Source of the DNA: Candidatus Woesebacteria bacterium GW2011_GWB1_38_8b
GTDB taxonomy: Bacteria; Patescibacteriota; Microgenomatia; UBA8517
Assembly: GCA_000993115.1 (NCBI GenBank)
Contig: LBVN01000018.1
Location: forward strand, 1-51,584
DNA: 51,584 bases
Reading direction: 5' to 3'
Below the pieces are notes generated by a model. It was not told the origin of the DNA. It searched no databases and saw nothing but the letters and a program-made list of their open reading frames with translations. This document shows, piece after piece, positions 222-40,460 of this stretch; the first letter of the stretch is position 1, and every line of letters starts with the position of its first letter. The translations under genes were made by a program, and so were the position numbers.

Positions 222-1118
222 TTACTTCAGTTTCGATTGATAATATTTGAAATAAGTGATTGGAAAATGAAGTGAGGAAAAAACTGACCACAAAAATCCT
301 TGCCTTCCATCCAAAATACCTTTATGCCTAAAGTAGAGCTTTAAAAAATTAACAGATGGCACAATAAATGAATATTTAAACAGATTCCAATTGGTTGCAG
401 GAATTTTTTTCGTCTCAAACTCTTTTGCCTGCAAATCCGTGTAGCGATTCATACGGTCCAAATACCTTTTTAAAGTAGGGGAGTCGTGGTGCTCCAAATC
501 GTTAAAAAGCCAACCGACTTCCCCATCAATTTCCATCAACTCATGAACCGATTTCGCTGGAAGTCTGGCTTTTCCGTTTTTAATAAGCCTTATTACCCCA
601 TCCGGGTAAACTCCCGCGTGGATTAAAGGTCTTCCTAAAAAGAAATTTCGTCGGGTGATAAAAAAGGCGACAACTTCGCCTGTTTTTTTGCCAAGGTGAC
701 CTTCCCTTTGCTCGATCAGTTTTTGGTGACGAAGAAATAATTTCAGGTGTTTGGAGGATAGTGTGTTGTGAACTGTGGAACTAGAAGAAAGCACCCTAGA
801 TTGATTTTCTTTATCTGAAAAATTAACAACTTCTTTAATTTCATCCGCCAGCTCTTTGGTCACACGCTCATCCGCATCAAGCTGCAAAACCCAATCCCCT
901 TTCGCCCTTTCAATAGCAAATTGTTTTGTTTCATGGAAATTGTTTTTATGAACAAAACTAAAAACTTTTGCGCCATGTTTTTTAGCGATTTCTACAGTTT
1001 TATCGCTAGAACCATCATCTACCACAATCATTTCATCGGCGATTTGTTTTACCGAATCCAAGCAAGCACCAATGTTTTCTTCTTCATTTTTAACTGCCAA
1101 GACAACTGATAATTTCAT
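222..1118 (-). CDS. GT2 family glycosyltransferase (KdtX/WcaA-like)
   Basis: KNEEENI, DDGSSDKT, LDADE (DxD) and VHE motifs; paralogous to 18831 and 20518 genes. Confidence 0.92.
   Translation of the reverse strand: MKLSVVLAVKNEEENIGACLDSVKQIADEMIVVDDGSSDKTVEIAKKHGAKVFSFVHKNNFHETKQFAIERAKGDWVLQLDADERVTKELADEIKEVVNFSDKENQSRVLSSSSTVHNTLSSKHLKLFLRHQKLIEQREGHLGKKTGEVVAFFITRRNFFLGRPLIHAGVYPDGVIRLIKNGKARLPAKSVHELMEIDGEVGWLFNDLEHHDSPTLKRYLDRMNRYTDLQAKEFETKKIPATNWNLFKYSFIVPSVNFLKLYFRHKGILDGRQGFLWSVFSSLHFPITYFKYYQSKLK
752..786 (-). repeat. Degenerate 5 x 7-nt array inside the GT2 CDS
   Basis: Coding strand TTCTAGT TCCACAG TTCACAA CACACTA TCCTCCA, encoding the Ser-rich segment SSSSTVHNTLSS. Confidence 0.4.
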
Positions 1119-1119
1119 A

Positions 1120-2391
1120 TTAATGCGATATTATTTTTGCAACTTTCTGTCCTAGTTCAACTGCATAGTTCGTTCCCCTGTCCCAAGGATACACCTGCTG
1201 AATATTGGCAAGGTATAACCCATCAATTGGTGTTTTAATACTGGGAATCTTGTTAGAGTAATTAAGAGGAACTATCGGTTGGGCAAAAAATGCTTTAAAA
1301 ATGTATGAGTCGATTATCCAGGATTTATTGAATTTCGGATTAATCTCACGAAGGGCGGGTAAAAATAGATTTACGAGTTCTGTCTCAGACTTAACAAAAT
1401 AATCATGTCCGGCAGGCAAGTAGTTGCCGATATAAATAATGTTTTCATTGTTGTAGTATTTTTTATCTACCAAGTTCGTGTGTTCAACAAGGGCCAAAAA
1501 CGGATACTTCCTGTTGTTAATATTGAGCCAGTAAGTTCCATCTTCAAAAAAGCTTTTGTTAAGAGATAAAACCAAAGTTACTGCCCCAAGACCTTCGAGT
1601 TTTTTTAAAGTGTTCAAGTAAACATCAGGAAGCCCTTTAGTTATTTTTGTGAAAATAGTTGTCGGTAGTGTGCAAATAACTTTATCAAATTCAAATCTGC
1701 TCTTATCGCTTAATCGCAAAGTAAATAATTCCTTTTTTTCTATTGATATCACTTGTTTTCTATACAAAACTACTCCTCCCAACTTTTGTATCTGTTCGGA
1801 CAAAGTTTGAGCAAGATCTTCAAAACCCCTTACCGGATACCCAAGTGACGCACTTCTTTTTTTGATCCTTGCCCAAAACCAAGAGGCAGGAATTTTATCT
1901 GCAAAATTACCAAATTTCCCAACGAATAATGGCTCCCACAATACTTTCCAGGCAGAATTTCCCATTGTACGAATTAAGTAATCTCTCGCAGTTAGAGTTT
2001 CCAAACTTTTCCAGTTGTTGGCCAGCTTCAAATATAACAACGACGCTCCGGCCCGTACCCGCGAAAAAAATGGTATGTGGGGAAATATTAATAAGCTAAG
2101 CGGTGAATCAAGTTGATAAATTTTGTTCCCTATCAAAATTGATGTTTTTGGACGGGAAAAATTTATTTCGTGATTTATTTCTTCGGCCAAAATTCTTATT
2201 GCATTGTCACTAACAAATAGATGGTGATAATGTTGTTCTATCGCCCACTCCCAATTCTTTGCACGAAAACCACCCGCCAATCCACCTGGTTTGTTTGCAG
2301 ACTCAAAAACTGTAACTTGGTGTCCTTTTTTTACAAGGACATATGCTGCCGACAATCCGGTAAATCCTGCACCAATAATTCCAATTTTCAT
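1120..2391 (-). CDS. FAD/NAD(P)-dependent oxidoreductase (COG1232/HemY-like fold), function unknown
   Basis: N-terminal GAGFTGL (GxGxxG), ESANKPGGLA, C-terminal YPWDRGTNYAV; start set at MKIGIIG (2391). Confidence 0.85.
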   Translation of the reverse strand: MKIGIIGAGFTGLSAAYVLVKKGHQVTVFESANKPGGLAGGFRAKNWEWAIEQHYHHLFVSDNAIRILAEEINHEINFSRPKTSILIGNKIYQLDSPLSLLIFPHIPFFSRVRAGASLLYLKLANNWKSLETLTARDYLIRTMGNSAWKVLWEPLFVGKFGNFADKIPASWFWARIKKRSASLGYPVRGFEDLAQTLSEQIQKLGGVVLYRKQVISIEKKELFTLRLSDKSRFEFDKVICTLPTTIFTKITKGLPDVYLNTLKKLEGLGAVTLVLSLNKSFFEDGTYWLNINNRKYPFLALVEHTNLVDKKYYNNENIIYIGNYLPAGHDYFVKSETELVNLFLPALREINPKFNKSWIIDSYIFKAFFAQPIVPLNYSNKIPSIKTPIDGLYLANIQQVYPWDRGTNYAVELGQKVAKIISH

Positions 2392-2423
2392 ATTTATAGA
2401 CTTTGACAAGTATGACTCAATCG

Positions 2424-4068
2424 TTAATTTGCGACAACTTCAAAATACAATTGTCCATTGCTACCATAAATACGCTTAATTATATTTGCTTCGTTCGGAA
2501 TTTCGCCGTCAGTTCCGGCTAATAAATAATTTGGATATTTTCCTTTGTCGCGATCAAAGTTAATACTACTGAATTCATATTTATCAAAAGCTGGGACTGT
2601 CGAAAAACCAAACCTGTCCCGGCCTAAAAGTACATGGTTATTTTGAAATTTTTCCGGAGGATATTTTAGGTAAAACAAAAATAAAATATATGGCTGGTCG
2701 TACCTGTCTGTAACTAAGACTTTCTTATCGCTACCTATACTTACTAAAAAGCTTGCAAGCTCTTTTACTCCGTATTGTGATGAATATTTATACTCTTTCG
2801 ACATATGCACCCAATACATATGCTCATAACGTACAAATTGTAAAACTATAACTGAGGTTATTAGAATACAGATCCCATATAGAGTATATTTATTCTTCAA
2901 TGTTTTTAAAAACCATGAAAGCATCTGTGAAATACCTATTGCACAAATTATTATGAGCGGAATCACCATATTTTGTGAACGAAGTGCGTGAGGAGATTGA
3001 AAAGTGAGTGCAGCAGCAGCTGGTGCAATCACTAACCACCATAAAAGAAGTTTTGTTTCTTTATTTAAATTTCTAATAAACCAACACAAACCAATAATTA
3101 ACCAAAAGAAGTCTAAAATATACATCTGACCTGTTTCCGGTACCCTGTTTCGTTCAATCACATCTCCCGATAAAAACAAGAACTCTCCATGGAAATGTTT
3201 TACCCAATTATCCAAGAAAGCCAAGCCATAATTTACCGGTTTATTATGATAAAGTTTTGCAATTAAACCGTTGTATTTATCATGCTCTCCTCTTTGTTCA
3301 TTGACACGCGAGAGTGGACCCGGATCGGCAAATAAACCAACACCAACAGCCCTGGAAGCTACATCGCCTTTGATAAAATCATTTGCCAATGGCAGGAGCA
3401 TGAATAAACAAAGTACCAAAACCCAAATTATTTTTTTAAGGTTTATCTTAATTGTGTCAAAATAGATGATAAAAATACCTAATCCCAGAAGGGGAACAAC
3501 GATTCGTGCAGCATGGTAAGTATAGAGTGATATTACAAAAAACATTCCGCTTAATATTAGATTGAATATCTTTTTGTTATCCCTAAATTGTAAAAAAAAC
3601 AATAGTCCTGCCATGATAAAGAAGGTTGCCGTATTTACTTCCCAACCTCCACGGCTAAAGTGTATATGCCAAGGAGAAATGGCAAGCATAAATGAAGCAA
3701 TAATTCCAAACTCTTTATTTGGATAAAGTTTCTCAACCAGCAAATATATTAAATACACGCAAAGTGCTCCCAATATTGCATTCGGAAGTCTAACTGACCA
3801 CTCATTAAGTCCGAAGAATTTAACGAAAGGTAAAACAATATAAAAATAAAGCCCTGGTTTATAATCGTTAAATGACTGAAAATGTATTGGCCAAGGATTT
3901 CCGTGTTCATCCTTACCTGTTTCTAAAAGCGAATATGCATTATATCCAATTGCTAATTGCTGCTTCGTCAGCATTAAAGGAGGGATAACTTCCCAACTTC
4001 CATAATCGAAGTGTGCCAGCCAAAATTATTATGAGGGTTAATATAACAAATTTGATTTTATTACTCAT
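2424..4068 (-). pseudogene. PMT/ArnT-like GT-C glycosyltransferase, frameshifted by a 7-bp tandem duplication
   Basis: ATG at 4068 reads MSNKIKFVILTLIIILAGTLRLWKLGSYPSFNADEAAI and then stops; ORF 2424-3974 continues AIGYNAYSLLETG. Removing one AATTGCT copy gives 1638 bp (546 codons). Confidence 0.85.
3948..3961 (+). repeat. 7-bp perfect tandem duplication (AATTGCT x2)
   Basis: Read directly at 3948-3954 and 3955-3961. Confidence 0.95.
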
Positions 4069-5738
4069 ATTTTCGATTCTAAAACTTTATAAATTACGTC
4101 CCCGTTTGGGTATTTAATATCTTTTATCAAATTGTAATCGTTTGGGTTATACGAAGTAATCACAACCGGCGTTCCTACAACCAAAGTTTTCGTTTTTAGT
4201 GGGATTGGCCAACTAAAAAAAGAAAAGGCGATGTTGTCAAGATTATCAACCAAACCAACGTCGGGTCCTAAGTAATTAGTAAGTTTTGCCTGGTCTTGAT
4301 ATTTTTTGGGATCATACTTTTCGTAAAAAAGAAAATAAATATATGGTTGCGCATAAGATTGTTGAATTATTACCTGCGAATAATTGTTTCTGATAGGCGA
4401 AACAGTTTGAACAATTTGTTTCATTCCATATTCCCAATATTTTGCATTATGAGTCGGTACATGAACAAGATATGAGTCTAAATAATACAAAAATGAGGCT
4501 GAGAAAATCGCTATAACCACAAACATCAATGGTATTTTAAATATAGGATGTTTGATTGTATTTACAAATTCAATTAAGTAAACTATACCAAAAGCAGAAA
4601 TTATAACAAATGGCACAAGCATGTTGTATGATCGAACTGCCTGCACAGCATCACGCGACATCGCAGCAGGGAGTGGTGCAAGTAACAACCAAAGCAATAT
4701 AAATTTCCCAATATTTTTATAATTTGTTCTGATTAGACCCATAACGCCCAACGGTAACAAAAGTAAATCAAATAATAATAATGTTCCATGATTAGGTGGA
4801 GTGTGACGCGGATTTGCCCAATCGCCTTCGAAGAATAAAAACCTTCCGGAGAGATGATTAAACCATCGTCCCATTACTCCACGAGTAAAATTAAGAGTTT
4901 CAGAATGAAATAAATAATAACTTAATGTACCGTATTTTTCACTTCCTTCATCAAGAAAGTTCTGCAGATAGTCGCGTGGTCTTGGATATGAGAAAACACT
5001 AAACACTTCAAGTCTACCTGCAGCACCAGTAAAAATACTAAATATTATCGGAGTTGAAATTAATAAGCCAAGAATTAGTGACTTAACAACATCAATTTTA
5101 TCCGTTTTTATAATCTCGATAATCTCTTTGTAAAAAGCAACGCAAAGACAAAGTACAACAATTGCTGTTGATAATTTTGCCCCCTGGTACGTTAATAGTG
5201 TCGCTGCAAAAGCAATCACAGAAATTTTCAGATATTTAATTTGTGTGAGCGACTGCAGAAAATAATATATTCCGAGAAGTGTCAGAGTTAAGGCAACATT
5301 TACTTCCCAAGCCCCTCTTGAAAATTGTATATGCCAAGGTGATATTGCAAGTAAAAAAGCCGACCAAATCCCTAACTCTTTTTTATTTGTCAACTTATAT
5401 AAAATTAAATATAGCAAAAATACACTAAATACTCCCGAAAGGGCAGAAGGTAGTCGAACTGACCATTCGTTAAGCCCAAAAACTGCGACAAAGGGAGCGG
5501 TTAAATAAACGTAAAATCCGGGTTTATAATCACCAAACGATTTAAAAATTACGGGAAGGAATTTTCCGTACTCGTCTCTACCTGTTTTTAAAATCGAATA
5601 CGCGTTATATCCGAGCGCCGCTTCATCGGGAGTTAGTCCTGGGGGGATTTTGTTTAAATTCCAAATTCTCAAAAACGCTGACAAAACAATTATCAAAAGC
5701 AGTATTATATTGATTTTTGATTTCATTTTATTAAACAT
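4065..5738 (-). CDS. PMT/ArnT-like GT-C membrane glycosyltransferase
   Basis: FLRIW..PPGLTPDEAALGYNAYSILKTGRDEYG, SVRLPSA, SPWHIQFSRGAWE motifs; many TM segments; start at MFNKMK just after the upstream stop. Confidence 0.88.
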   Translation of the reverse strand: MFNKMKSKINIILLLIIVLSAFLRIWNLNKIPPGLTPDEAALGYNAYSILKTGRDEYGKFLPVIFKSFGDYKPGFYVYLTAPFVAVFGLNEWSVRLPSALSGVFSVFLLYLILYKLTNKKELGIWSAFLLAISPWHIQFSRGAWEVNVALTLTLLGIYYFLQSLTQIKYLKISVIAFAATLLTYQGAKLSTAIVVLCLCVAFYKEIIEIIKTDKIDVVKSLILGLLISTPIIFSIFTGAAGRLEVFSVFSYPRPRDYLQNFLDEGSEKYGTLSYYLFHSETLNFTRGVMGRWFNHLSGRFLFFEGDWANPRHTPPNHGTLLLFDLLLLPLGVMGLIRTNYKNIGKFILLWLLLAPLPAAMSRDAVQAVRSYNMLVPFVIISAFGIVYLIEFVNTIKHPIFKIPLMFVVIAIFSASFLYYLDSYLVHVPTHNAKYWEYGMKQIVQTVSPIRNNYSQVIIQQSYAQPYIYFLFYEKYDPKKYQDQAKLTNYLGPDVGLVDNLDNIAFSFFSWPIPLKTKTLVVGTPVVITSYNPNDYNLIKDIKYPNGDVIYKVLESKI

Positions 5739-5739
5739 G

Positions 5740-7491
5740 CTAAATATTTGAGTAAATCGTAAACGCGGTTGTTCCGTCCAGATAAACAATTTCTTTAAGC
5801 TTGTTCCAAGTCTTTGGAACGCTATCTGAATCTGAAAACAATAAGCATTTTTGGGTTGTGCAGTCAGTTAACGCACCTTTCTCTGTTACAAAAGGTTGCC
5901 ACTCTTCGGTTGGAATGTCCCACTCATTTACAAAAATAAATTTATAAAAGGAATCCACCCAATTCCATTCAGACTGATTATAACGTACTAAACCCGGGTC
6001 ATTAATATACTTTGCAGGATCCCACTTAAGATAAAATAGCAAAAACTCGTGAGGCTCTCCATATTTTTTGGTAAATATAATTTTGTCATAATTATGATAA
6101 TTTCCCTGAATATAGTCAGTGGCTTCTCTGTATCCGTATTGCCAACTCCATGAGTAATTTTGTCTATACTCGTTGAAATATTTTGTCATATATTTGCTCG
6201 CAGAGATGATAAGTAAAATGAGGAAAGCAAAATATAAAGCTTTCTTTGTTGATATCCACCAACCCGCCAACCAGCTTATACTCATTTTCTCGCCAAGAGT
6301 ATTATGTGACCATTCAATAAATATTACCAAACCAACAGAAGTCAAAATCATAGGAACCGGAAGCAAGGTAATTGTACGAAGTACATGAGGAGCCTCGCGG
6401 GTTAAACTACCTGCTATCGGAGCAAGGAAAATCCACAATAATATCAAACGGGATTTTTTAAAGTTCTTTAGAATAAAGAGTAAGCCCAATAACAAAAATG
6501 GTAAATCGATTAAATATAACAATCCGGTTTTCGGAATACTAAATTGATAATTATCCCCTCCTTCTATAAATAAAAACTTAGGGGAGTATGTTGATACCCA
6601 ATTTTTGGCAAATTGCATTGAAACGTAAGAATATTTATTAATAATCAGCCGTTCGATATTGGGATTGAAATTAAAATTTTGTCTCGCTGCGACAATTTTC
6701 CCAATAGCCCCTTCGTCAATAATTGAAACTTTTGAGAATCGGGCGGTTCCGGATGATTGTAAAAGCTGTATAAGCATGGGAACAAATAAAACTGTGACAA
6801 TTAATGTTGAAGCAAACGCAATAGTTTTATTGTTTTGCATTACATTAATAAACTTCTGTCTATACATTATTAATATTGAAATCAGCATTAGTGGTGTAAA
6901 AATCCGATTCGAATTATAAGTCCATACAGAAAGACCCAATAAAAGTAGCGAAAGAGGTAAATACTTGTACTTTTCCGACGATTTCAGGAGTAAATAATAT
7001 CCGGTTACAAAAAATGCCAAAGCCAAATTTGCTTCAAAAGCAGGTCTCGACAGAAACAAGCTCCATGGCTCAACTGCCACTAATAATGATGACAACAATC
7101 CCACAAAAACCAAAGAAGTCGCGTTTTTAAAAACACCTCGTAACAATTCTTTTGACAAAAAAAAGGAAATAATTATTGTTATTGTTCCCGCAATAACACT
7201 TGGTAGTCTCACAGCAAATCCATTGAGGCCAAAAAACAGCTCTGATAGTGAGGTTAAATATATATAAACGGGTAGTTTGTAATCACCGTAAGCTTTAAAT
7301 ATTATCGGAAATTTAACCCCCCATTCGTCAGCACCTGTTTTAAGAATTGCGTAAGCATTATACCCATGACTTATTTCATCCCAATTAAGACTTGGTGGAT
7401 TATCGGATAGCTTATAAATACGAAGACAAAATCCAAAAAGTGAAATTAAAAATAGTATAACCAGTGGGTTAATCTTTTGATTCTTTAGCAT
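5740..7491 (-). CDS. PMT/ArnT-like GT-C membrane glycosyltransferase
   Basis: LNWDEISHGYNAYAILKTGADEWG, AVRLPS, EPWSLFLSRPAFE motifs; start at MLKNQK. Confidence 0.88.
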   Translation of the reverse strand: MLKNQKINPLVILFLISLFGFCLRIYKLSDNPPSLNWDEISHGYNAYAILKTGADEWGVKFPIIFKAYGDYKLPVYIYLTSLSELFFGLNGFAVRLPSVIAGTITIIISFFLSKELLRGVFKNATSLVFVGLLSSLLVAVEPWSLFLSRPAFEANLALAFFVTGYYLLLKSSEKYKYLPLSLLLLGLSVWTYNSNRIFTPLMLISILIMYRQKFINVMQNNKTIAFASTLIVTVLFVPMLIQLLQSSGTARFSKVSIIDEGAIGKIVAARQNFNFNPNIERLIINKYSYVSMQFAKNWVSTYSPKFLFIEGGDNYQFSIPKTGLLYLIDLPFLLLGLLFILKNFKKSRLILLWIFLAPIAGSLTREAPHVLRTITLLPVPMILTSVGLVIFIEWSHNTLGEKMSISWLAGWWISTKKALYFAFLILLIISASKYMTKYFNEYRQNYSWSWQYGYREATDYIQGNYHNYDKIIFTKKYGEPHEFLLFYLKWDPAKYINDPGLVRYNQSEWNWVDSFYKFIFVNEWDIPTEEWQPFVTEKGALTDCTTQKCLLFSDSDSVPKTWNKLKEIVYLDGTTAFTIYSNI

Positions 7492-9184
7492 AATAGGACG
7501 ACCCTGTGTCGACAATATAAATTAAGTCTTCCCCGCTGGGTGTCGCAAATTTCTTTATGGGTATTATGTTTTCGGGAAATTCCTCTGGTTTTCCGATTAA
7601 AATTACATCTTTTCCCTTCCATTCTTCATAATAAATATTTTTAAATAAATAATTACCTAGACGATATTCTCCCATTTGATCTACCCAACCTAATCCCTTT
7701 TCTTTAAAATTCCAATTCTTCGAATTAAGCTGATAATCTTTAGGATTGGTCTTGTTCACAAACGCCACGTAAATATGTGGCTCTGATAATTTCCTACTCA
7801 CAACGATTTGCCCATCATAACCAGCCACATATTTAAGACTTTCTAAATTTCCGGAAAGCATATCTTTAGCGATTTTACTTGGTGCTACAAAAAAATAGTT
7901 TTCCAAAAAGGAGACTACAAATACTGTAGAAAGTAGTGCGTAAAACAGAATAAAATATTTTTGATCTAGTTTAAATTTTACAAAATCTACTTTTAATTTC
8001 GACAATTCATAGGCTCCGATTGCCAAAAATAGATATACAGAAGGAAGCATCACCACTGCCCTATTTGCTGCAAATCCTGGTCCGATTGCAAGAGAAGCCG
8101 GGATAGGGGATACTAAAAACCAAAAAACAAATAGCCCCATCGATTTCCCAATCTTTTGTTTTACCAAAAATCGTAGAAATAGTATCAAAAGCGGCAGTTC
8201 AAACCAATAAAGCACTCCCCGATCATCGGACATTCCGTAAGTCTTCTCCCCTGCCCCCCGCACAAAAAGAAATTGCGGAGAAAGATAACTCAAATAATTC
8301 GAGGTACCTGTCTTCCCGAAAACCTGATATTTATTATGAAACGCTCTTGCTATCGCATCGGGTAAGCCATTATTGTAGGCACGGATTCGCTCAACCGAGG
8401 CTTGATTAAGAGATAATTTATAGATTGATACATCTGCCAGCCTTGCTCCGGCGCCTTGTAAAAATGTATAAGCCGTAAGAAGCAAAAAAACCAAAAATAT
8501 AAAGACAGATTTTGCTAACGTCTTTTTATCTCTAATCACGTCTTTGAAAAAAATCAAAGCAAGTGCCGCCATAACTAAACCTGTAACTAGTTTTGCTGAA
8601 TGATAAGTAAATAAATTCAAACCAAACCCCAACGAAGACAAATATAAAAAGTTAGGTTTTTTTGAGTTTAAATATTTAAAAAACAAGAAGAGAGAAAGAG
8701 GAATAAAAAATGTGGTTAGATTCGCTTCGAATGCTCCCCTACTCATTGCTATATGCCACGGCGAAATTGAAAACAAAATTGCCCCCAGCGTTGCTACAAA
8801 TTCTTTTTTGGATTTAAAGTCTGCCCTAAACCAAGAGTTGCCGCTTCTTTCTTCATAATCAAATACTTCTTTTATTAAAAAATAAAAAACCAGTACAGCA
8901 AATGAGCCTAAAATCGCATTCGGGAGTCGCACAGAGGTGGGATTTAATCCATTTATCCAGACAAACGGTATTGCAAGATAAGAATAAAGCGGCGCCTTAT
9001 AATCTCCAAAAGACTCTAAAACCAGTGGAAACTTCTTACCCCACTGATCAGCACCTGTTTTTAATATCGTGTATGCATCATACCCGAAAGAGGCTTCATC
9101 GGGATTAAACCCAATCGGGGCTTTGGAAATCTGTATTGTTCTTAGAAACAAAGCCAGAATAAATACGAGGATTATTCTTTTCAC
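7469..9184 (-). CDS. PMT/ArnT-like GT-C membrane glycosyltransferase
   Basis: FNPDEASFGYDAYTILKTGADQWG, SVRLPNA, SPWHIAMSRGAFE motifs; GTG start. Confidence 0.88.
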   Translation of the reverse strand: MKRIILVFILALFLRTIQISKAPIGFNPDEASFGYDAYTILKTGADQWGKKFPLVLESFGDYKAPLYSYLAIPFVWINGLNPTSVRLPNAILGSFAVLVFYFLIKEVFDYEERSGNSWFRADFKSKKEFVATLGAILFSISPWHIAMSRGAFEANLTTFFIPLSLFLFFKYLNSKKPNFLYLSSLGFGLNLFTYHSAKLVTGLVMAALALIFFKDVIRDKKTLAKSVFIFLVFLLLTAYTFLQGAGARLADVSIYKLSLNQASVERIRAYNNGLPDAIARAFHNKYQVFGKTGTSNYLSYLSPQFLFVRGAGEKTYGMSDDRGVLYWFELPLLILFLRFLVKQKIGKSMGLFVFWFLVSPIPASLAIGPGFAANRAVVMLPSVYLFLAIGAYELSKLKVDFVKFKLDQKYFILFYALLSTVFVVSFLENYFFVAPSKIAKDMLSGNLESLKYVAGYDGQIVVSRKLSEPHIYVAFVNKTNPKDYQLNSKNWNFKEKGLGWVDQMGEYRLGNYLFKNIYYEEWKGKDVILIGKPEEFPENIIPIKKFATPSGEDLIYIVDTGSSYYAKESKD

Positions 9185-10596: not shown

Positions 10597-10597
10597 T

Positions 10598-14606: not shown

Positions 14607-14619
14607 AAAACAAAAGTTA

Positions 14620-19598: not shown

Positions 19599-19600
19599 TA

Positions 19601-27555: not shown

Positions 27556-27588
27556 AATCAATATCAATTATATTACAATATTGTACAT

Positions 27589-32974: not shown

Positions 32975-33987
32975 AATTCTTTTTTATTTGAAGATTCTTC
33001 GATATATTCTTTTGCATATTTTCTGGCAGTTACTAAGACTTTTTCGACAGCCTCGTCAAAGTTTTCAAAATCAAACCAAGCTCCTGCGGAAGCTTTGTGT
33101 CCAGAACCTCCGAACTCCTGCGCAATTTTAGAAACATCAAAATTCGTCCTAGATCGTAAACTCATATTTAAAACATTTGGCCTTTGTTCTACTATTACAA
33201 TTCCAAAGTCGGTGTTTTTTACCGTTCTGAAAATTACACTTGCCGCTAATGACTTCGCTTCTCCAGGCTTACCGAATTCCAGAAATTTATCGTATGGAAC
33301 CGCAGTCCAAACAAATCTATACTCTGAATCAATATTCATGTTTTTCAGCATCTCACCCCAAAATTTAAGCAGTTTATATTCATTTGAGTGAAATAAATTT
33401 AAAATTATGTCTTTAGTATTTGCACCTAACTTTACAAGTTCGCCTGAAACTATAAACGTACTAGAGTATGTTTTGTCTGTTTGAAACGAAACCGAATCTG
33501 CATAAATTCCTGTTAAAAGAGTTGTTGCCAAATTCTTTGTGATTTTAATACCCCAATCGTGGAAAACCTTATATAAAACTTCGCACGTAGAACTTGTTAC
33601 TTCCAAAAGATTAATTTCTCCATATTTTTCATTTGTAGAATGATGATCGATTGTAACCATGGAGATATTTGGCATTTTTAAATCTTTTATTCCAACTAAT
33701 TGATCATATGATGAGGAATCTAGCGCAATAAACAAGTCATAATCGCTGTAATCAAATTTTGTAATATCAACTTTTATTATTTTATCGAAATAAGGTACAA
33801 AATTATAAGCCGAATGTACAGTATCAGGAGAAATTACATCAATCAACTTTTTCATACCTGTCAAAACTTGATACATTGCGAGGTTACTTGCAATACTATC
33901 CGGGTCAGGGCTTTTGTGACAACTTAAAAGTATTTTCTTGGCTTTTTTTATTTTATCTAAAATATCCTTTGACTCTTTGTAATTCAT
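32971..33987 (-). CDS. DHH/DHHA1 family phosphoesterase (NrnA-like)
   Basis: HKSPDPDS, ALD, IDHH, GIYADS, SLRS, GGSGHKASAG motifs. Confidence 0.92.
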   Translation of the reverse strand: MNYKESKDILDKIKKAKKILLSCHKSPDPDSIASNLAMYQVLTGMKKLIDVISPDTVHSAYNFVPYFDKIIKVDITKFDYSDYDLFIALDSSSYDQLVGIKDLKMPNISMVTIDHHSTNEKYGEINLLEVTSSTCEVLYKVFHDWGIKITKNLATTLLTGIYADSVSFQTDKTYSSTFIVSGELVKLGANTKDIILNLFHSNEYKLLKFWGEMLKNMNIDSEYRFVWTAVPYDKFLEFGKPGEAKSLAASVIFRTVKNTDFGIVIVEQRPNVLNMSLRSRTNFDVSKIAQEFGGSGHKASAGAWFDFENFDEAVEKVLVTARKYAKEYIEESSNKKEL

Positions 33988-35639
33988 TGCGTGTGTATTA
34001 ACTTATAAACTATAACACCTCCAACTTCCCACTCCCCATCAATTTTACTCCAACCAAAATTGGCAATTTCGGCTTTCGGAGAATGAGTTGGATCGCATTC
34101 AATTTTTGGCATTTCGCAAACTACAAACAATTGGTTAGCAACCGTATCAGAAAGCGTAAGCGGATCAATGTCGAAAACGGGTTGTCTTTCTTTTTCAAGA
34201 AAATATTGGTATCCGTCTTCGTAATTTTGTTTTGCAATAACTGCTAAATTAAATTTTTCATTTCCTGATTCCGATTTAATTTTATCCGCAACAATTTGCG
34301 CTCTTTTCATCTGCATATTCGGTCGGTATTTAAGCGGATTCTCCCGCAAGTTAACACAAATTAAATACGCAAAAACCAAAATCAACAAAGCTTTTACCCA
34401 AACTCCGTACTTTTCCCACAGATGAGAATAAAATCCTCCGAACAAAATAAAAGGTGCCGCAAAAATAAAACCAAAATAATGATCATAAATATGTTGTTTA
34501 TAAAGCCCAAGACCCAAAATTGCAAAAAATAACCAGACAGTCAGTATAAATAATGAGGAAATAAAATTGTTGTCGGAGATTTCTTTATCATCACCACGTA
34601 ATATTTTAAATAGGTTTTTCCAAAATTTAAGAAGATAAAGAATAATCAAATCAAAAATTCCGAAGGCAATCCAAAGTCCCGCAGTTGCATTCTTCCCCCC
34701 AACAATTCTTGTTATGAAATCGTCTTTCCAGATTGGAAACATGTTAGGAATGGATTTCCAGGGTTTTATTGAAACGGTAGTTTGACGCTCACTAAAAAAT
34801 TTTGAAATTGCTCCGAAATTCTGCCAACCATGACGAGCGTCAAAAATGACCAATGGAGACATAAGAAATAGAAACACTACAGTACCTATTAACGAATACT
34901 TTATAAAATTAGAAAGTTGAGATTTGTTATTTAGGCTTTTTCCGGAATTACCAATTACTAATTTATAATTCCTAACTAATTTCAAAATAACTATGAACCA
35001 AAAAATAAATATTGTCGGCAGTAGAAGAAGCCCTAAGTAGTGGGACTGAAGTACAAACGAAAAAGAAATTCCCAATACTACCAACCATTTATAATTTGCT
35101 TTTTCCCAGACTTGCCAAAGGCTGTAAATACATAAAAGTGAAAAAAACGGCATGATGTTTGGGTTCCAGGAAGATTTTGAGTAAATAATCACAACCGGGG
35201 ATATTGCATAAAGTGTTGCAGCCGCGAGTGCCCCATAATGGATATTTTTTACATTTCTCGAAGCAAACCATTCACGGGTTATAAACCAGACCATAAACAC
35301 GGTAACAGTTCCCATAAGCGCAATCAAAATTGCCGGACCAACAGGAGAAAAGTTCGAAAGAAGAAGTGCGGGAGCCATTAAGTAGTAATACAGCGGACCC
35401 AAATACATGTTTCCGATTGATGTTCCGGGCCCAATTAAAATCGGGTCAAAATTTACAAGCAACCTTCGGACAACGATAGCATCCCGTCCCTCGTCTCCCA
35501 AAAAAGTCATGTAATCGCCAATTTTATAAAGCCGGAGAAACGCGCTGATTAGTAAAATAATTGCAAGAAGTACTGTCTCTTTCTTATGCTCAATAATCCA
35601 AGTCTTAATACTCAATGCATAAATTTCTAATTTTTTCAT
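33984..35639 (-). CDS. PMT/ArnT-like GT-C membrane glycosyltransferase
   Basis: FLRLYKI..F LGDEGRD, LGPLYYYL, SSWNPN, QSHY motifs; ATGA overlap with the upstream gene. Confidence 0.85.
   Translation of the reverse strand: MKKLEIYALSIKTWIIEHKKETVLLAIILLISAFLRLYKIGDYMTFLGDEGRDAIVVRRLLVNFDPILIGPGTSIGNMYLGPLYYYLMAPALLLSNFSPVGPAILIALMGTVTVFMVWFITREWFASRNVKNIHYGALAAATLYAISPVVIIYSKSSWNPNIMPFFSLLCIYSLWQVWEKANYKWLVVLGISFSFVLQSHYLGLLLLPTIFIFWFIVILKLVRNYKLVIGNSGKSLNNKSQLSNFIKYSLIGTVVFLFLMSPLVIFDARHGWQNFGAISKFFSERQTTVSIKPWKSIPNMFPIWKDDFITRIVGGKNATAGLWIAFGIFDLIILYLLKFWKNLFKILRGDDKEISDNNFISSLFILTVWLFFAILGLGLYKQHIYDHYFGFIFAAPFILFGGFYSHLWEKYGVWVKALLILVFAYLICVNLRENPLKYRPNMQMKRAQIVADKIKSESGNEKFNLAVIAKQNYEDGYQYFLEKERQPVFDIDPLTLSDTVANQLFVVCEMPKIECDPTHSPKAEIANFGWSKIDGEWEVGGVIVYKLIHTQ
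34903..34980. repeat. Imperfect inverted pair of heptamer arrays inside a CDS
   Basis: AATTACC AATTACT AATTTAT AATTCCT AACTAAT (34946-34980); 34906-34924 matches the reverse complement of 34946-34964 at 14/19. Confidence 0.55.
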
Positions 35640-36346
35640 CTTATCTGCCACCAAAGTTTTAACAAATCACGAAGACTTCGAAGAATTACTTTCAAATCCG
35701 CTCCGGTTTGGTGTCCAAATTTTCTAGGATAATGATTTACTTTCACTTCCGCAAATTTAAATCCGTGCCGCTGCGCCTTAACCAGCATCTCAATTTGGGT
35801 AACTTTCTCCTCCCCCACCAATGGCAATACTTTTTTATATACTTCTTTTTTAATAAGTTTAAATCCGCAGGAGTAATCAGTTACCCGAAGACCCAAAAGT
35901 ATTCTTGGCAGAATTTTTGACCAAACCAGCGTAAAAAGTTTGCGAATGAACGGATCTGCCCTGTTACCCCTAATTCCCAAAACCAAGTCTGCGTCAGTTT
36001 CTTTTTGTTTTTCTATAAACAATTTTATTTCCGAGAAATCAAATTGTCCGTCGGCGTCGGCAAATGCAACCCATTTAAATTCTGAGTTTTCATAACCGGA
36101 CTTAAGTGCCCCACCATAGCCTCTGTTTGGGCTGTGGTGAATAACTTTTATCCTTTTATCGGCTTTTGCTAAACCATCGGAAATTATTCCTGTTTTGTCG
36201 CGTGATCCGTCATCAACAATAATTATTTCCCATTTCGAAGAAATTTCCTCAAGCACTTTTTTTGCGTCACCAATCGTCTTTTTAATATTTTTTTCTTCGT
36301 TATACGCCGGAAAGAAAGCTGAGATTTCGTCAATTAATTTCGCCAT
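35636..36346 (-). CDS. DPM1-like polyprenol-phosphate glycosyltransferase (GT2)
   Basis: PAYNEE, DDGSRDKT, NRGYGGA, FADADGQ, DYSCGFK motifs. Confidence 0.9.
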   Translation of the reverse strand: MAKLIDEISAFFPAYNEEKNIKKTIGDAKKVLEEISSKWEIIIVDDGSRDKTGIISDGLAKADKRIKVIHHSPNRGYGGALKSGYENSEFKWVAFADADGQFDFSEIKLFIEKQKETDADLVLGIRGNRADPFIRKLFTLVWSKILPRILLGLRVTDYSCGFKLIKKEVYKKVLPLVGEEKVTQIEMLVKAQRHGFKFAEVKVNHYPRKFGHQTGADLKVILRSLRDLLKLWWQIR

Positions 36347-36438: not shown

Positions 36439-37590
36439 ATGAAGAAATTTTTTAAAGATCTTCCTCCTGTTCTGTTTTTTTCAATTATCCCAATAGTTTT
36501 AGTTTGGATTCCATTTATTTTTAGGCTTGATTCATTTTGGAATATACCTCTTACAAAAAATGGCTTGGCAACAATTGTCGCTAATTACGACGGACCGCTT
36601 TATTTAATTATTGCGAAAACTTTGTATAACACGGAAAGCATTAAAACCATGTTCTCTGTTCCCCTTCCGGTTGAATATTACGCGGCACATTTTCCACTAT
36701 TTCCAATCCTAATTAGATTATTTTCGTTTATCGGAAATTACCCTTATGCAATGCTCACGGCTACCGTGCTTTCATCGGTTTATGCAATGTACTTTTTCAA
36801 AAAATTAATTTCCCAATTTGTACGTGAAGAAAATATAGTCTGGATGATGCTTATTTTTGCAATCCTTCCCGCCAGGTGGCTAATTGTACGATCTGTCGGA
36901 TCCCCCGAGCCGCTTTTTGTCGGAAGTATAATAGCATCACTTTTTTATTTTAAGAATAAAAAATATCTTCTGGCCGGTATATTCGGCGCAATTGCACAGA
37001 TTACAAAATCCCCAGGGATATTACTTTTTGCAGGATACATTGGATTCTTTATTTTTGAAGCAATTTACAACGCATCGATAAGTCACAAAACCGTAAATTT
37101 TAACTTCGTTCGCAAACTACCGCTTTTTTTGATTCCCTTATCGCTTTTGGGGGTGTTTTTTCTCTATTCAAAAGTATACGGGAATTTTTATGCATATTTT
37201 GACTCAGGCGACAACATCCACCTTTTCTTCCCACCGTTTCAGATTTTTAATTACAGCCAGCCGTGGGTAAATACTTTTTGGTTGGAGGAAGTAGTTTTAG
37301 TCTACATCATCGCACTCTTGGGAATTTTCAAGCTTTTTGAGAAAAAAGAATTTGAGTACGCCATATTTACAGCCGTATTTTTTACAACCATTATATTTGT
37401 TTCACACCGCGACATTATCCGCTATGCATTACCGATTGTTCCCTTTATACTAGCCGGGTTCTCAGAAACTCTCACGAAAAAATCATTCAGATTGTTACTT
37501 TTAATAGTAGCTTTACCGATTTATTTATTTTCCCTAGCCTACATTTCCCAAAATGTAATGCCAATCTCCAACTGGGCTCCTTTCCTTTGA
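36439..37590 (+). CDS. GT-C mannosyltransferase-like membrane protein (PIG-V type)
   Basis: NYDGPLY, AHFPLFP, GSPEPLF, DIIRY motifs; polytopic. Confidence 0.7.
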   Translation: MKKFFKDLPPVLFFSIIPIVLVWIPFIFRLDSFWNIPLTKNGLATIVANYDGPLYLIIAKTLYNTESIKTMFSVPLPVEYYAAHFPLFPILIRLFSFIGNYPYAMLTATVLSSVYAMYFFKKLISQFVREENIVWMMLIFAILPARWLIVRSVGSPEPLFVGSIIASLFYFKNKKYLLAGIFGAIAQITKSPGILLFAGYIGFFIFEAIYNASISHKTVNFNFVRKLPLFLIPLSLLGVFFLYSKVYGNFYAYFDSGDNIHLFFPPFQIFNYSQPWVNTFWLEEVVLVYIIALLGIFKLFEKKEFEYAIFTAVFFTTIIFVSHRDIIRYALPIVPFILAGFSETLTKKSFRLLLLIVALPIYLFSLAYISQNVMPISNWAPFL

Positions 37591-37884: not shown

Positions 37885-38103
37885 ATGGCGCAATCTGGAG
37901 TTAGTACTACTATATCAAGACGTTGGAGAAATAAAGAGTCATATACGGAATTTACCGGAAGCAAGTGTGGCAATTGTGGCGACAGAAGAATTCCAGCAAG
38001 AGATGTGTGTCCGAATTGCGGAAACGACAAAATAATCAGGGACAGAGTTCTAGAAAGAGAATCTAGGTTTGCTACTCAACCTCCTGTGCAAAGTGGTAGT
38101 TAA
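37885..38103 (+). CDS. Stand-alone zinc-ribbon protein (DUF35 N-terminal-like)
   Basis: RRWR...GSKCGNCG...PARDVCPNCG (two CxxC); no OB-fold domain follows. Confidence 0.75.
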   Translation: MAQSGVSTTISRRWRNKESYTEFTGSKCGNCGDRRIPARDVCPNCGNDKIIRDRVLERESRFATQPPVQSGS

Positions 38104-38944
38104 TTTCGGATTTTACCTGAAGCGGATTAAATGCTACATTTTTTCGCTTTAACTCCAAATACTTTTCGTAACCGGTTAATGCCTCGTAAACACCTGCTCT
38201 AAATTCTTTTTTGTCTTTTACCAAACCGAACTTTTCCAAATCCAGAAATTCATAATCCTGGAGTTTATAGCTTTGGAAATTATCTAACTTCGACAATTTT
38301 TGGGGCAATTTAATCTGAAATACTTCAACCCGAACATCTGCAATGTCCAAATACATAAATGGTTTTGGCCGTGTTGGAATTAATGAAAGAGGTAAATTTC
38401 TGTCAATCGCAAGCTCAGTAAATACTTCCTGCTGTAAAATCCTTAAAATCCCATCTTCGCGCTTTTCATTAATTTTTGAAAAACCCATAGGAATAGAAAT
38501 TGAAGAAAATGGTTTTCCGTAATAAGACCTTGGTGTTGAAACATCACGGCCTGTTAATACCATTTTCTGGCTATTAAAAGGCGTAATAATCAATCCCGTC
38601 CCAAGCCTCCTTGTAACCCCTTCCTTGATGTAAGAAAGCACACGGTAAAGAGTAACCGCAGAAGTTATAAAACTGGGTGGCATTTTTTTATAGAGTTTAT
38701 CCAAAGGGATGTCCTCGTGAACCATCTTGGCCAAAAAATTAACAACCTCACTTAATTTACTGTTTGGTCCGGCAGCTTTTATAATTCCCCACTTATCCAA
38801 AATTCTTTGGTATTGGGCGTAAGATATAGGAATGTCGAGATGATGATATCTGAAAACTTCATCTACCGATCCAAGCTTAAGGTATTCGCGAACAAGAAAT
38901 TTATTAAATTCAATCTCATTGTTTACAGGAAATTTTGCTGTCAT
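38072..38944 (-). CDS. Hypothetical protein with a helical N-terminus and a degenerate Nudix box
   Basis: 290-aa ORF; G154-x5-E160-x7-R168-I-L-Q-Q-E173 resembles GX5EX7REUXEE. Confidence 0.6.
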   Translation of the reverse strand: MTAKFPVNNEIEFNKFLVREYLKLGSVDEVFRYHHLDIPISYAQYQRILDKWGIIKAAGPNSKLSEVVNFLAKMVHEDIPLDKLYKKMPPSFITSAVTLYRVLSYIKEGVTRRLGTGLIITPFNSQKMVLTGRDVSTPRSYYGKPFSSISIPMGFSKINEKREDGILRILQQEVFTELAIDRNLPLSLIPTRPKPFMYLDIADVRVEVFQIKLPQKLSKLDNFQSYKLQDYEFLDLEKFGLVKDKKEFRAGVYEALTGYEKYLELKRKNVAFNPLQVKSEINYHFAQEVE

Positions 38945-38974
38945 ATTGTATTATATTATTAATCATTCCCTTTT

Positions 38975-39000
38975 GTCATTCTGAGCAAAGCGAAGAATCT
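38975..39000 (+). repeat. Left REP-like hairpin repeat
   Basis: GTC-ATTCT-GAGCAAAGCGA-AGAAT-CT; stem ATTCT/AGAAT. Confidence 0.85.
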
Positions 39001-39003
39001 ATT

Positions 39004-39288
39004 GTGTATTACGTGTACATACTAACAAACAAGTACAATAATGTCCTATACACGGGTGTTACTAACAATATAGTTCGAAGGGTATATGAACATAAGAAGA
39101 AATACATTAAAGGGTTTACGAGCAAATATAATGTTAATAAATTAATATATTTTGAAATATTTAGCTCCAGTATCGAAGCAATCAGTCGCGAAAAACAGAT
39201 CAAAGGTTGGACAAGAATAAGAAAAATTAACCTAATTTTAAAAAATAATCCCAACTTTGAAGATCTGTATAGTGATTTAATCAAATAA
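39004..39288 (+). CDS. GIY-YIG nuclease family protein (YhbQ-like, single domain)
   Basis: YYVYILTN...LYTGVTNN..RR..EH, FTSKY, AISREKQIK motifs; GTG start inferred at 39004. Confidence 0.92.
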   Translation: MYYVYILTNKYNNVLYTGVTNNIVRRVYEHKKKYIKGFTSKYNVNKLIYFEIFSSSIEAISREKQIKGWTRIRKINLILKNNPNFEDLYSDLIK

Positions 39289-39290
39289 CT

Positions 39291-39316
39291 AGATCCTTCG
39301 TTATACTCAGGATGAC
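39291..39316 (-). repeat. Right REP-like hairpin repeat (inverted)
   Basis: AG-ATCCT-TCGTTATACTC-AGGAT-GAC; stem ATCCT/AGGAT. Confidence 0.85.
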
Positions 39317-39320
39317 TATG

Positions 39321-40460
39321 TCACTTTTTGCTCCAGGGAAGTTTCCAGGTCTTCCAGATTACCGCGTTATACATGAAATAGTTATACGGAAGTACTAATA
39401 ACAAAATAATAATGGGCAGAAGCAGTTGTCTTTTGTCCGCACCCAGGAAATAAACACCTATTGTTCCGAAAACCGCCTGAATTGCGAGGGCTCCGAGTGA
39501 CGTTCCGTTAAACTGCAGGAATTTTGAAAGTAATTTTCCGACTCCTGTTATTTTCTCCGACTTAAAAGTCCAGAGATTATTTAAAATAAAATTAGAAATT
39601 ATCGCCATTTCTGTCGCCGCCGCCCAGATTCCCCATTCGGGAAATGCAGTCCGGCCAAAAAGCTCCAGTCCTAGCGCATTAACGACGTAACCAATAAAGC
39701 CTACAGTACCAAATTTTATAAATCTGGCTTTATCTTTTATACCCAAATAAGTTGCCAACTTGAGTGATGCCAATGTTTCCGCTTGGTTAAATTTAGACTT
39801 GTCAGTAATTCTGGGACGAAATTCTAAAGGGACTTCAACGGTTTTCTTGGAATTTTTAATACTTTGATAAATTAGATCAATTTTGTACGCAAACCGCGTT
39901 GGCTCTTTTAGGTTATCTAAATCAATTTTGTCTAAAACACCTTTGACTTTTGTAAGTCTAAAACCCGTTGTTAAATCATGAATTCCCGGTTTAAGAAGTA
40001 CTATTCTTATATAAAGATTTCCAAAATAACTTACAGCTTTTCTGAAAAGCGCCCACTCTTTCGGAATTGAGCCACCTTTTACATAACGCGACCCGATAAC
40101 ATATTCTGCGCCAGCTAAATATGCATCCACCATCGGCTTTACAAATTCAGGCGGATGTTGACCGTCAGCATCCATTTCCATCACGGCATCAGCTTCCAAT
40201 TTATCAACGGCATATTTAAATCCGGAGATATAAGCATTTCCCAATCCTTTGCCTGTTTGTTGGACAATATGAAGGTTTTTTCTTTCCTTCATTTCTTCTT
40301 CGATTATTTCGGTCATACCGTCCGTGGATTTGTTGTCGGCAACAAGAAGATGCATGTCTGCATCTATTTTTGGAAATACTTCGTCAAACAAAGTATTGAC
40401 CATCTTTTTAATATTTTCCGCCTCATTCCAAGCGGCCATAACAATCACTACTTTATCCAT
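39321..40460 (-). CDS. DPM1-like polyprenol-phosphate glycosyltransferase fused to a C-terminal GtrA domain
   Basis: WNEAEN, DNKSTDG, GLGNAY, EMDADGQH, IGSRY, DLTTGFR; C-terminal RFIKFGTVG...VN...NFILNNLWTF. Confidence 0.92.
   Translation of the reverse strand: MDKVVIVMAAWNEAENIKKMVNTLFDEVFPKIDADMHLLVADNKSTDGMTEIIEEEMKERKNLHIVQQTGKGLGNAYISGFKYAVDKLEADAVMEMDADGQHPPEFVKPMVDAYLAGAEYVIGSRYVKGGSIPKEWALFRKAVSYFGNLYIRIVLLKPGIHDLTTGFRLTKVKGVLDKIDLDNLKEPTRFAYKIDLIYQSIKNSKKTVEVPLEFRPRITDKSKFNQAETLASLKLATYLGIKDKARFIKFGTVGFIGYVVNALGLELFGRTAFPEWGIWAAATEMAIISNFILNNLWTFKSEKITGVGKLLSKFLQFNGTSLGALAIQAVFGTIGVYFLGADKRQLLLPIIILLLVLPYNYFMYNAVIWKTWKLPWSKK

Follow-up and report, generated by a model that had tools for sequence, protein, structure and literature searches.

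Several described systems rely on polytopic glycosyltransferases of the GT-C fold class. The pathways for lipomannan and lipoarabinomannan (LM/LAM) and for arabinogalactan in mycobacteria and corynebacteria (PimE, MptA/B/C, EmbA-C, and AftA-D, with Ppm1 as polyprenyl-P-mannose synthase) employ many GT-C enzymes, which use polyprenyl-phosphate-linked sugars on the outer face of the membrane and assemble a core envelope glycoconjugate stepwise. Three-component systems (GtrA/GtrB/GtrC, CsbB/GtcA/YfhO, PgfS/PgfM1, and ArnC/ArnT) place a gene for a GT2-family synthase beside a gene for a GT-C enzyme. In the archaeal Agl and Campylobacter Pgl systems (AglJ/AglD/AglB; PglB plus a flippase), a flippase gene is accompanied by a gene for an STT3-fold GT-C enzyme and by genes for Leloir glycosyltransferases (GTs), and in the eukaryotic endoplasmic reticulum (ER) lumen the PMT-like, PIG-M/ALG6-like, and STT3-like subfamilies of the ALG, PIG, and PMT enzymes co-occur, fed by Dol-P-sugar-type donors. 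Here we describe a densely packed locus of ~40 kb with features of each of these systems. It occupies positions 222 to 40460 of contig LBVN01000018.1 (51,584 nucleotides [nt], analyzed over its whole length and referred to below as the window) from Candidatus Woesebacteria bacterium GW2011_GWB1_38_8b, a reduced-genome bacterium of the Candidate Phyla Radiation (CPR; Microgenomates), and it holds 16 GT-C-type genes, nearly the whole locus being read from the minus strand.

The likeness to each system is partial. As in the LM/LAM and arabinogalactan pathways, many GT-C enzymes are encoded that would use polyprenyl-phosphate sugars at the outer face; the locus includes a GT87/PimE-like member and a DPM1-like synthase, and the fold searches matched AftA, AftD, and Emb structures as well. 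However, the genes lie in a single operon-like array in a genome of ~0.9 Mb, there is no Emb/Aft-type sequence family in the locus, a DprE-type arabinose donor pathway was not identified, the array also contains a Wzx module and a gene for an STT3-like enzyme, and the CPR host has no known mycolata-type wall. The locus shares with the three-component systems the pairing of a GT2 synthase gene with a GT-C gene, a YfhO/PgfM1-like member, and small GT2s whose best matches are GtrB, ArnC, and PgfS, but its synthase:GT-C ratio is ~1:5 whereas theirs is 1:1, and it has one GtrA-type domain, which is fused to a synthase. Like Agl and Pgl loci, it has a flippase gene followed by a gene for an STT3-fold GT-C protein with Leloir GT genes alongside, a DPMS-type GT2 with GtrA-like transmembrane (TM) helices that aligns over its full length with an archaeal Dol-P-Man synthase, and weak Agl23 and AglJ family matches; unlike them, it encodes an STT3-like protein with neither the WWDxG motif nor an STT3 Pfam match, and it has far more GT-C genes than any Agl or Pgl locus. 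Finally, ALG9, ALG12, ALG6, and PIG-M of the ER lumen are among the fold matches, although the host is bacterial, the identity is only 10 to 16%, and nothing points to orthology or a common product.

Attachment to other cells is the presumed lifestyle of CPR bacteria (Patescibacteria), whose surfaces are, to our knowledge, almost unstudied. Our literature search found no characterization of a matching locus. In papers on CPR genomes, we found only passing mentions of multiple Dol-P-Man transferases and of a GT87 protein (PMC4736985, PMC6031116). The novelty lies in a GT-C supercluster that spans a lineage, is unusual in its size and order, and includes two GT-C families for which there is no Pfam model.

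Sixteen GT-C-type genes in one densely packed locus

The gene content was checked with Pfam, NCBIfam, profiles of solved structures in the PDB, and two fold predictions (AlphaFold2 [AF2] models searched with Foldseek). A preliminary description, made from the letters of the window, had proposed 16 GT-C-type genes from at least five subfamilies; all 16 are backed by a hidden Markov model (HMM), a profile, or a fold, and they are distinct polytopic genes that fall into at least six subfamilies. Eleven score at or above a Pfam cutoff (nine for PMT_2 or PMT, one for YfhO at its C terminus, and one for GT87), with the limit that two genes, 7469-9184 and 11926-13684, pass the PMT_2/PMT cutoff only as summed or whole-genome-frame scores (their single matches reach 22.4 and 24.7 bits versus a cutoff of 26.1). 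A twelfth gene has a PTPS_related match below the Pfam cutoff, and the others are supported by profile or fold. A hydropathy scan gave 6 to 10 TM helices for each candidate. The first loop after TM helix 1 (TM1) contains an Asp residue in every one of the 16 except 31514-32974 as called, within motifs (DE, GDE, HDQD, HGD, HKD, HPD, HDD, GHD, YDG, or TD) that lie no more than ~30 residues past TM1.

Nine of the genes, all on the minus strand, are of the PMT type. Five of them form family A: 2424-4068 (PMT, 48 bits; PMT_2, 46 bits), 4065-5789 (PMT_2/PMT by Pfam, with a DE motif after TM1), 5740-7515 (PMT_2 by Pfam), 7469-9184 (PMT_2, 33.3 bits summed; 28 to 31% identical to the other family A members), and 11926-13684, which is made up of two open reading frames (ORFs) that match family A N termini and the remainder of the family, respectively. 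Three more, 30013-31500 (PMT_2, 36.8 bits), 31514-32974 (29.6 bits; 30% identical to the first), and 33984-35654 (34.7 bits), form family C, and 27589-29208 (PMT_2, 32 bits; PMT, 23.9 bits; GDE motif after TM1) is a further PMT_2 gene. As called from its ATGA-coupled start, 31514-32974 is without the HDQD/GDE-type loop 1 motif of its two paralogues; it may encode a noncatalytic partner, or a wrong start may have been called. Families A and C and 27589-29208 show the sequence characters of PMT/GT39 enzymes, namely, a Pfam PMT or PMT_2 match above the cutoff and a DE motif in loop 1. Because PMT_2 also covers ArnT-like lipid/glycan transferases, transfer of mannose to Ser/Thr of proteins is only one of the possible activities of these enzymes.

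The remaining GT-C genes are more varied. Family B comprises two minus-strand neighbors, 9286-10596 (8 predicted TM helices) and 10598-11848 (30% identical to it; E value, 9e-41), neither of which has a Pfam match of its own. A profile of 27 homologues, which takes in both paralogues, matches the solved GPI mannosyltransferase 1 (PIG-M) with an E value of 7.6e-8, so that family B is classed here as PIG-M/Gpi18-like, and some of the homologues match Alg6_Alg8, PMT_2, or DUF2079. Distantly related to family B (blastp E value to the 9286-10596 product, 6e-6) is the small GT87 (PimE)-like gene 26590-27567 (minus strand), which scores 25.2 bits for GT87 against a cutoff of 25. Two larger minus-strand genes are 15476-17906, which is YfhO/PgfM1-like (YfhO C terminus, 45.5 bits; PgfM1 E value, 8e-6), and 24628-26397, which is of the PTPS_related type. 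The latter's own PTPS_related match is 20.6 bits and below the cutoff; in its family, 8 of 9 members match PTPS_related (best E value, 4e-15), 3 match PMT_2, and 1 matches YfhO. The last two GT-C genes, 21412-23139 and 36439-37590, were recognized by fold and are treated below. PDB profile searches with the 21412, 36439, and 24628 families returned chance matches only.

From position 36346 down to 222, 27 minus-strand genes follow one another across 36 kb with no gap larger than 192 nt. Linkage by overlapping stop and start codons, as originally noted, is seen as ATGA at 4 junctions and as TAATG at 1, and gaps at 6 more junctions are ≤5 nt. Outside this array, the locus contains the divergent plus-strand gene 36439-37590 and the DPMS-like gene 39321-40460. 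The 25.5 kb of GT-C coding sequence makes up 63% of the locus and 2.8% of the 0.90-Mb assembly (33 contigs, 85.6% complete, ~35% G+C); given these proportions, the GT-C density is not due to chance, and the view that a reduced-genome organism devotes a large locus to glycosylation fits the assembly. Further GT genes lie elsewhere in the genome: ~8 additional PMT_2-type genes on other contigs, two Glycos_transf_4 genes, and one small Bac_transf priming transferase gene.

The array is conserved in order across the class

When the product of 4065-5789 was used as the query, the public relatives were 37 to 57% identical; the closest of them include Candidatus Blackburnbacteria, and several are metagenome-assembled genomes with placeholder names. 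The order of orthologues of 11926, 9286, 7469, the PTPS-related gene, 5740, 4065, 2424, and a terminal GT2 gene is kept in the loci of six relatives (L001 to L006). In two complete genomes, G017 and G008, the full 40-kb order is largely preserved; both GT2/GT-C pairs and the Wzx/GT2s/GT4 block are among what is kept. The terminal gene of the array here, 222-1118 (minus strand; Pfam Glycos_transf_2 E value, 1e-21), has orthologues with 49 to 62% identity directly after the 2424 orthologue in L001 to L006, G008, and G017, and at the other end of the locus, orthologues of 39321-40460 in G008 and G017 are in the same place and are 64 to 65% identical.

When family A was placed in a maximum-likelihood tree, the positional paralogues separated into one clade each (support, 90 to 100); 4065-5789 has its own clade, and the orthologue clades of 5740-7515 and 7469-9184 have support values of 99/100 and 100/99, respectively. 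Since every positional paralogue has its own orthologue clade, the duplications must be old, with each copy kept, and a recent lineage-specific tandem expansion of family A can be rejected.

Matches to PMT_2 were present in all 41 relatives sampled from the same family, order, and class (median, 23 per genome; range, 8 to 36), compared to a median of 3 (range, 0 to 19) in 115 genomes of the other classes of the phylum, 5 of which had 13 or more. Judged from this distribution and the shared gene order, the locus is a feature conserved across the class Microgenomatia and is not peculiar to this genome. Retained gene for gene throughout the class and taking up ~3% of a ~1-Mb genome, the GT-C block is probably central to the envelope or to contact with the host.

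An STT3-like gene lies directly downstream of wzx

The predicted Wzx is encoded by 23102-24592 (minus strand), a MOP-type flippase gene (Polysacc_synt_3 E value, 2e-54; NCBIfam MOP flippase E value, 1e-37). Directly after it lies 21412-23139 (minus strand), a member of a family of more than 1,258 homologues, all annotated as hypothetical, which has no Pfam model. The AF2 model of its product is a helical bundle (pLDDT, 85.6), and the top 16 Foldseek matches are all catalytic subunits of oligosaccharyltransferases (OSTs; STT3, AglB, and PglB) or DPY19, with E values of 4e-9 to 1e-5 and TM scores of ~0.5; these are followed by AftD, AftA, and Pmt4, such that only GT-C structures were matched. 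The C-terminal domain resembles that of AglB (3vu0; TMt, ~0.5). By sequence, no Pfam family was found at an E value of ≤0.01, no NCBIfam match was found, and the family profile found no OST in the PDB. The WWDxG motif is missing in 30 of 30 family members, none of which has WWD, WW[DE].G, or W.D.G. With neither WWDxG nor an STT3 HMM match, the protein cannot be counted as a canonical OST and is OST-like in fold only.

At an E value of ≤1e-10, the family was found only in the class Microgenomatia, in 8 of 17 class genomes (including this one) versus 0 of 284 genomes from other classes. The STT3-like gene stands immediately downstream of wzx here, and the same holds for each of the other genomes that have a strong orthologue (7 of 7). 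Coupling to Wzx is not universal: the wzx gene of G008 has no such neighbor, and only divergent paralogues are found in that genome, ≥10 kb away. In three distant class genomes (G187:C1:279617-281305, G284:C1:512993-514591, and G313:C1:152087-153760), the open frame that contains the STT3-like gene is 1,021 to 1,144 amino acids (aa) long and includes an N-terminal extension of ~450 to 550 aa that abuts wzx. No protein of the locus has a Wzy_C or O-antigen ligase (WaaL) Pfam match; the whole genome was not searched for Wzy.

A small GT-C-fold protein is a core gene of the class

The gene 36439-37590, read from the plus strand divergently from the array, encodes a 383-aa GT-C-fold membrane protein. 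Within the class, the gene is core and single copy: 40 of 41 relatives have it, at 43 to 63% identity. No Pfam match was found, and its NCBIfam match (AZOBR_p60025, 37.7 bits) is below the cutoff. The AF2 model (pLDDT, 86.7) is again a helical bundle, and all significant Foldseek matches are GT-C enzymes (STT3, PglB, ALG12, ALG9, ArnT, PIG-M, Pmt4, ALG6, and Emb; probability, 1.0; TM score, ~0.5; E values, 8.5e-4 to 0.1). The family contains 151 clusters at an E value of ≤1e-30 and has no Pfam coverage. Among its members, P0310, P0311, P0317, P0323, and P0375 have N-terminal extensions of ~300 to 400 aa with no Pfam match, and the distant member P0366 is fused to a C-terminal PA14 carbohydrate-binding domain.

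Predicted donor synthases and cytoplasmic glycosyltransferases

Three GT2 genes of the locus, all on the minus strand, encode the predicted donor synthases, and the initial assignment of these genes as DPM1-like agrees with their best matches (GtrB, ArnC, DPMS, PgfS, and PpgS). The product of 29246-29998 is DPM1/GtrB-like (250 aa; GT2 E value, 5e-30; DMD at residue 96); its best solved matches are GtrB sll0501 (E value, 4e-17), ArnC, and DPMS, and it matches PgfS and Dol-P-hexose transferase in NCBIfam. That of 35636-36346, the first gene of the minus-strand array, is DPM1/ArnC-like (236 aa; GT2 E value, 6e-30; DAD at residue 97), with NCBIfam matches to ArnC (E value, 3e-21) and PpgS (E value, 2e-14). 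The third, 39321-40460, joins an archaeal-type Dol-P-Man-synthase-like GT2 domain to a GtrA-type domain of 4 TM helices (Pfam GT2 plus GtrA_DPMS_TM) and aligns over its full length to the Pyrococcus furiosus DPMS (5mlz; E value, 2e-33). A DXD motif is present at residues 96 to 99 in each. Because all scores are under the NCBIfam equivalog cutoffs, no specific orthology can be claimed for the three synthases.

The 29246 and 35636 products are soluble and have no TM helix, resembling in this respect human DPM1 or the catalytic domain of mycobacterial Ppm1, both of which need a partner. The GtrA-type domain of 39321-40460 (window positions 39354 to 39716) is the only one in the whole genome. Two synthases are paired with GT-C genes: 35636-36346 overlaps 33984-35654 at an ATGA and is translationally coupled to it, an arrangement kept in G008 and G017, and 29246-29998 is upstream of and paired with 27589-29208, the two being directly adjacent in G017.

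The Wzx, GT4, and six other GT2 assignments made initially are upheld by Pfam and NCBIfam. Besides 222-1118, the GT2 genes are 13764-14696 and 14620-15528, which encode soluble Leloir-type enzymes with no TM helices (Glycos_transf_2 E values, 1e-26 and 2e-26), and 18831-19607, 19601-20590, and 20518-21408 (Pfam), which are grouped with the GT4 gene 17806-18864 (Pfam); all are on the minus strand. The last four genes (17806-21408) are joined by a TAATG overlap or by gaps of 2 to 5 nt and occur in the same order in G017, and their products would carry out cytoplasmic sugar-adding steps.

Three GT-C genes are disrupted in this assembly

The true start of the 2424-4068 gene is an ATG overlapping the stop codon of 4065-5789, from which TM1 and the sequence NADEAAI are encoded in another frame. 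A perfect 7-bp tandem duplication (AGCAATT twice, within 3960-4070) shifts the frame just past NADEA, and the gene is intact in 6 of 6 relatives. The 11926-13684 gene is split by a perfect 28-bp tandem duplication (~13403-13458) and is a single frame in L002 and L005; ORF 13217-13684 was considered as an extra gene and rejected, since it matches family A N termini while ORF 11926-13377 matches the remainder. In the YfhO-like gene 15476-17906, a deletion of ~80 nt (within 17000-17120) is accompanied by a frame change near 17062, and the gene is without ~26 residues, including one TM helix, that are present in the 828-aa orthologue in L028; relatives have a single ORF of 780 to 845 aa. ORF 17055-17906 is the N-terminal half of this broken gene and not an extra gene. 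A homopolymer sequencing error was also rejected as the source of the break, because a stretch of ~26 aa is missing, which is not what slippage in the nearby A8 run would give.

The three lesions may be fixed, may be population variants, or may be assembly artifacts. Because short, perfect tandem duplications are able to revert, one can conceive of a role as a switch or as a population variant. On the complete chromosome of a relative, the gene similar to 7469-9184 (L001:4624-6216) contains an internal TAA, so broken GT-C copies are not confined to this assembly.

A proposed two-part envelope glycosylation supercluster and its alternatives

We think it likely that the locus is a copy of a class-wide envelope glycosylation supercluster, with its main site of action on the outer face of the cytoplasmic membrane and with two linked parts, a Wzx-flipped oligosaccharide module and a battery of lipid-phosphate-dependent GT-C enzymes. 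Gene content, folds, paralogy, synteny, packing, the adjacency of wzx to the STT3-like gene, and distribution, as described above, are the basis of this proposal; which type of donor is used, on which face the enzymes act, in what order the steps run, and what the product and the acceptor are have to be deduced from established knowledge of the donor synthases GtrB, ArnC, and DPM1, of the transferases PMT, ArnT, PimE, PIG-M, and YfhO, and of the Wzx and OST families. In the first part, a priming phosphoglycosyltransferase encoded elsewhere would start a glycan on a lipid diphosphate, the GT4 and the five soluble GT2s of the locus would extend it on the cytoplasmic face, and Wzx would flip the lipid-linked oligosaccharide, for which the STT3/AglB-like product of 21412-23139 is the obvious candidate user. 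In the second part, polyprenyl phosphate would be charged with single sugars by the three DPM1/GtrB/ArnC-like GT2s on the cytoplasmic face; the lipid-phosphate sugars would then reach the outer face by flipping that is unexplained apart from the one GtrA-type domain; and ~15 GT-C enzymes (the five of family A, the three of family C, and the PIG-M/GT87-like, PTPS-related, YfhO-like, and small core GT-C proteins) would transfer them to an extracytoplasmic acceptor. That the GT-C enzymes use donors linked to polyprenyl phosphate or diphosphate is suggested by their family assignments and by the DPM1-like synthases and Wzx encoded with them. Since the paralogues are ancient, individually conserved, and in fixed order, the locus most likely encodes enzymes that assemble or decorate a core surface glycoconjugate step by step, rather than a hypervariable antigen.

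The preliminary description had favored a lipid-donor logic like that of archaea, actinobacteria, or the ER over O-antigen synthesis. The GT-C folds and the matches to lipid-phosphate synthases agree with the first half of that view, but the contrast with O-antigen synthesis has to be softened, since a classical cytoplasmic Wzx-dependent oligosaccharide module is also in the locus. Its more basic premises stand, in that the membrane proteins do have GT-C support and no characterized pathway matching the locus was found.

Several observations weigh against the two-part proposal. The genome has a lone GtrA-type domain and no obvious flippase or membrane partner for the two soluble DPM1-like synthases, which leaves unexplained how their products reach the outer face. 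The priming transferase is absent from the locus, priming transferases being encoded elsewhere in the genome. The wzx gene of G008 has no STT3-like neighbor, and because WWDxG and an STT3 Pfam match are lacking, adjacency and fold are all that link the 21412 product to a flipped oligosaccharide. In this assembly, frameshifts or deletions affect 3 of the 16 GT-C genes, which may mean partial decay of this copy or variants in the assembly. Finally, sequence does not distinguish one assembly line from several independent systems.

The alternative that survives best overlaps with the two-part proposal and does not exclude it. The locus could serve mainly for protein glycosylation, with PMT-like enzymes O-glycosylating secreted, S-layer, or pilus proteins from polyprenyl-phosphate sugars and the STT3-like enzyme transferring the flipped oligosaccharide en bloc in the style of archaeal Agl or Campylobacter Pgl. 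PMT and PMT_2 are protein O-mannosyltransferase families, the top folds of the 21412 product are OST catalytic subunits down to the C-terminal domain, wzx is adjacent in every examined genome with a strong 21412 orthologue, locus proteins have no Wzy or WaaL Pfam match, and locus GT2s match AglJ, PgfS, and Dol-P-hexose transferase in NCBIfam. However, the absence of WWDxG from all 30 family members examined and of any STT3 Pfam match, the inclusion of ArnT-like lipid/glycan transferases in PMT_2, the presence of 16 distinct conserved GT-C genes, which far exceeds the number in known protein glycosylation systems, and the fact that no acceptor protein was identified make this a possibility that we hold to be doubtful.

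A related idea concerns the STT3-like family itself. We raise, tentatively, the possibility that the family is a previously unrecognized bacterial STT3/AglB-like branch that, needing neither Wzy nor WaaL, transfers a lipid-linked oligosaccharide flipped by Wzx en bloc onto a surface protein or an acceptor in the wall, after which the ~15 other GT-C enzymes would elaborate the product outside the membrane, as in an ER-like pathway in an ultrasmall bacterium. If an STT3-like enzyme of this kind does handle flipped oligosaccharides, the bacterial range of OST-type enzymes would be wider, with relevance to glyco-engineering and to the origins of ER-type glycosylation. In any case, biochemical work can draw on two unannotated GT-C families and three predicted donor synthases from the locus, and the locus itself can serve as a marker for the class.

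Somewhat less probable still is a set of colocated but independent three-component systems (GT2 synthase, flippase, and GT-C enzyme, like GtrABC, CsbB/GtcA/YfhO, or ArnC/ArnT), each decorating a different existing polymer such as a teichoic acid-like polymer, peptidoglycan, or lipids. The three adjacent or overlapping sets (35636 with 33984, 29246 with 27589, and 39321 with its own GtrA domain) speak for this reading, as do the YfhO/PgfM1-like and GtrB-like matches, but just three donor synthases would have to serve ~15 GT-C enzymes. In addition, the block made up of the five family A genes and the PIG-M-like and PTPS-related genes has a fixed order and lacks a synthase of its own, which better fits sequential action on one growing product. 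That the array here is a decaying or partly nonfunctional remnant, or that its breaks are assembly artifacts and nothing special is made, is very improbable: the 7-bp duplication, the 28-bp duplication, and the ~80-nt deletion in 3 of 16 GT-C genes and the internal stop in a relative's 7469-like gene speak for it, but the other 13 GT-C genes and all synthase, Wzx, and Leloir GT genes are intact, the orthologues are 40 to 65% identical and syntenic class-wide, which points to purifying selection, and further paralogues are found elsewhere in the genome.

Accessory and flanking genes

Two minus-strand genes within the array are not GT genes. Between the last family A gene and the terminal GT2 gene lies 1120-2409, which encodes a flavin adenine dinucleotide-dependent oxidoreductase similar to amine oxidases and phytoene desaturases (Pfam Amino_oxidase E value, 9e-26; NCBIfam PRK07233 E value, 3e-127). 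It is accessory here, as no match was found between the 2424-like and 222-like genes of L001 to L006, so that the oxidoreductase is missing from that position in these six relatives; its substrate could be a sugar or an isoprenoid carrier. A DHH/DHHA1 phosphoesterase gene of the NrnA-like type, 32971-33987 (Pfam DHH E value, 2e-16, plus DHHA1; NrnA E value, 8e-20), is joined at both ends by ATGA overlaps to the GT-C genes on either side of it, and such a gene is found beside the 33984 orthologue in G008 but not in G017.

Between the small core GT-C gene and the DPMS-like gene, 38072-38944 was considered as a GT-C candidate and rejected, the product being soluble and having no Pfam or NCBIfam family match. 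It is followed by a small plus-strand ORF for a GIY-YIG nuclease (38935-39288; Pfam E value, 5e-18), which is probably a mobile or selfish element within the locus. In the flanks of the locus (40847-43826 and 46954-50776) are genes for a MacB-type ABC exporter, an HlyD-like adaptor, RmlD, RmlC, and a sugar-phosphate nucleotidyltransferase, which may provide precursor supply or export for the same surface structure.

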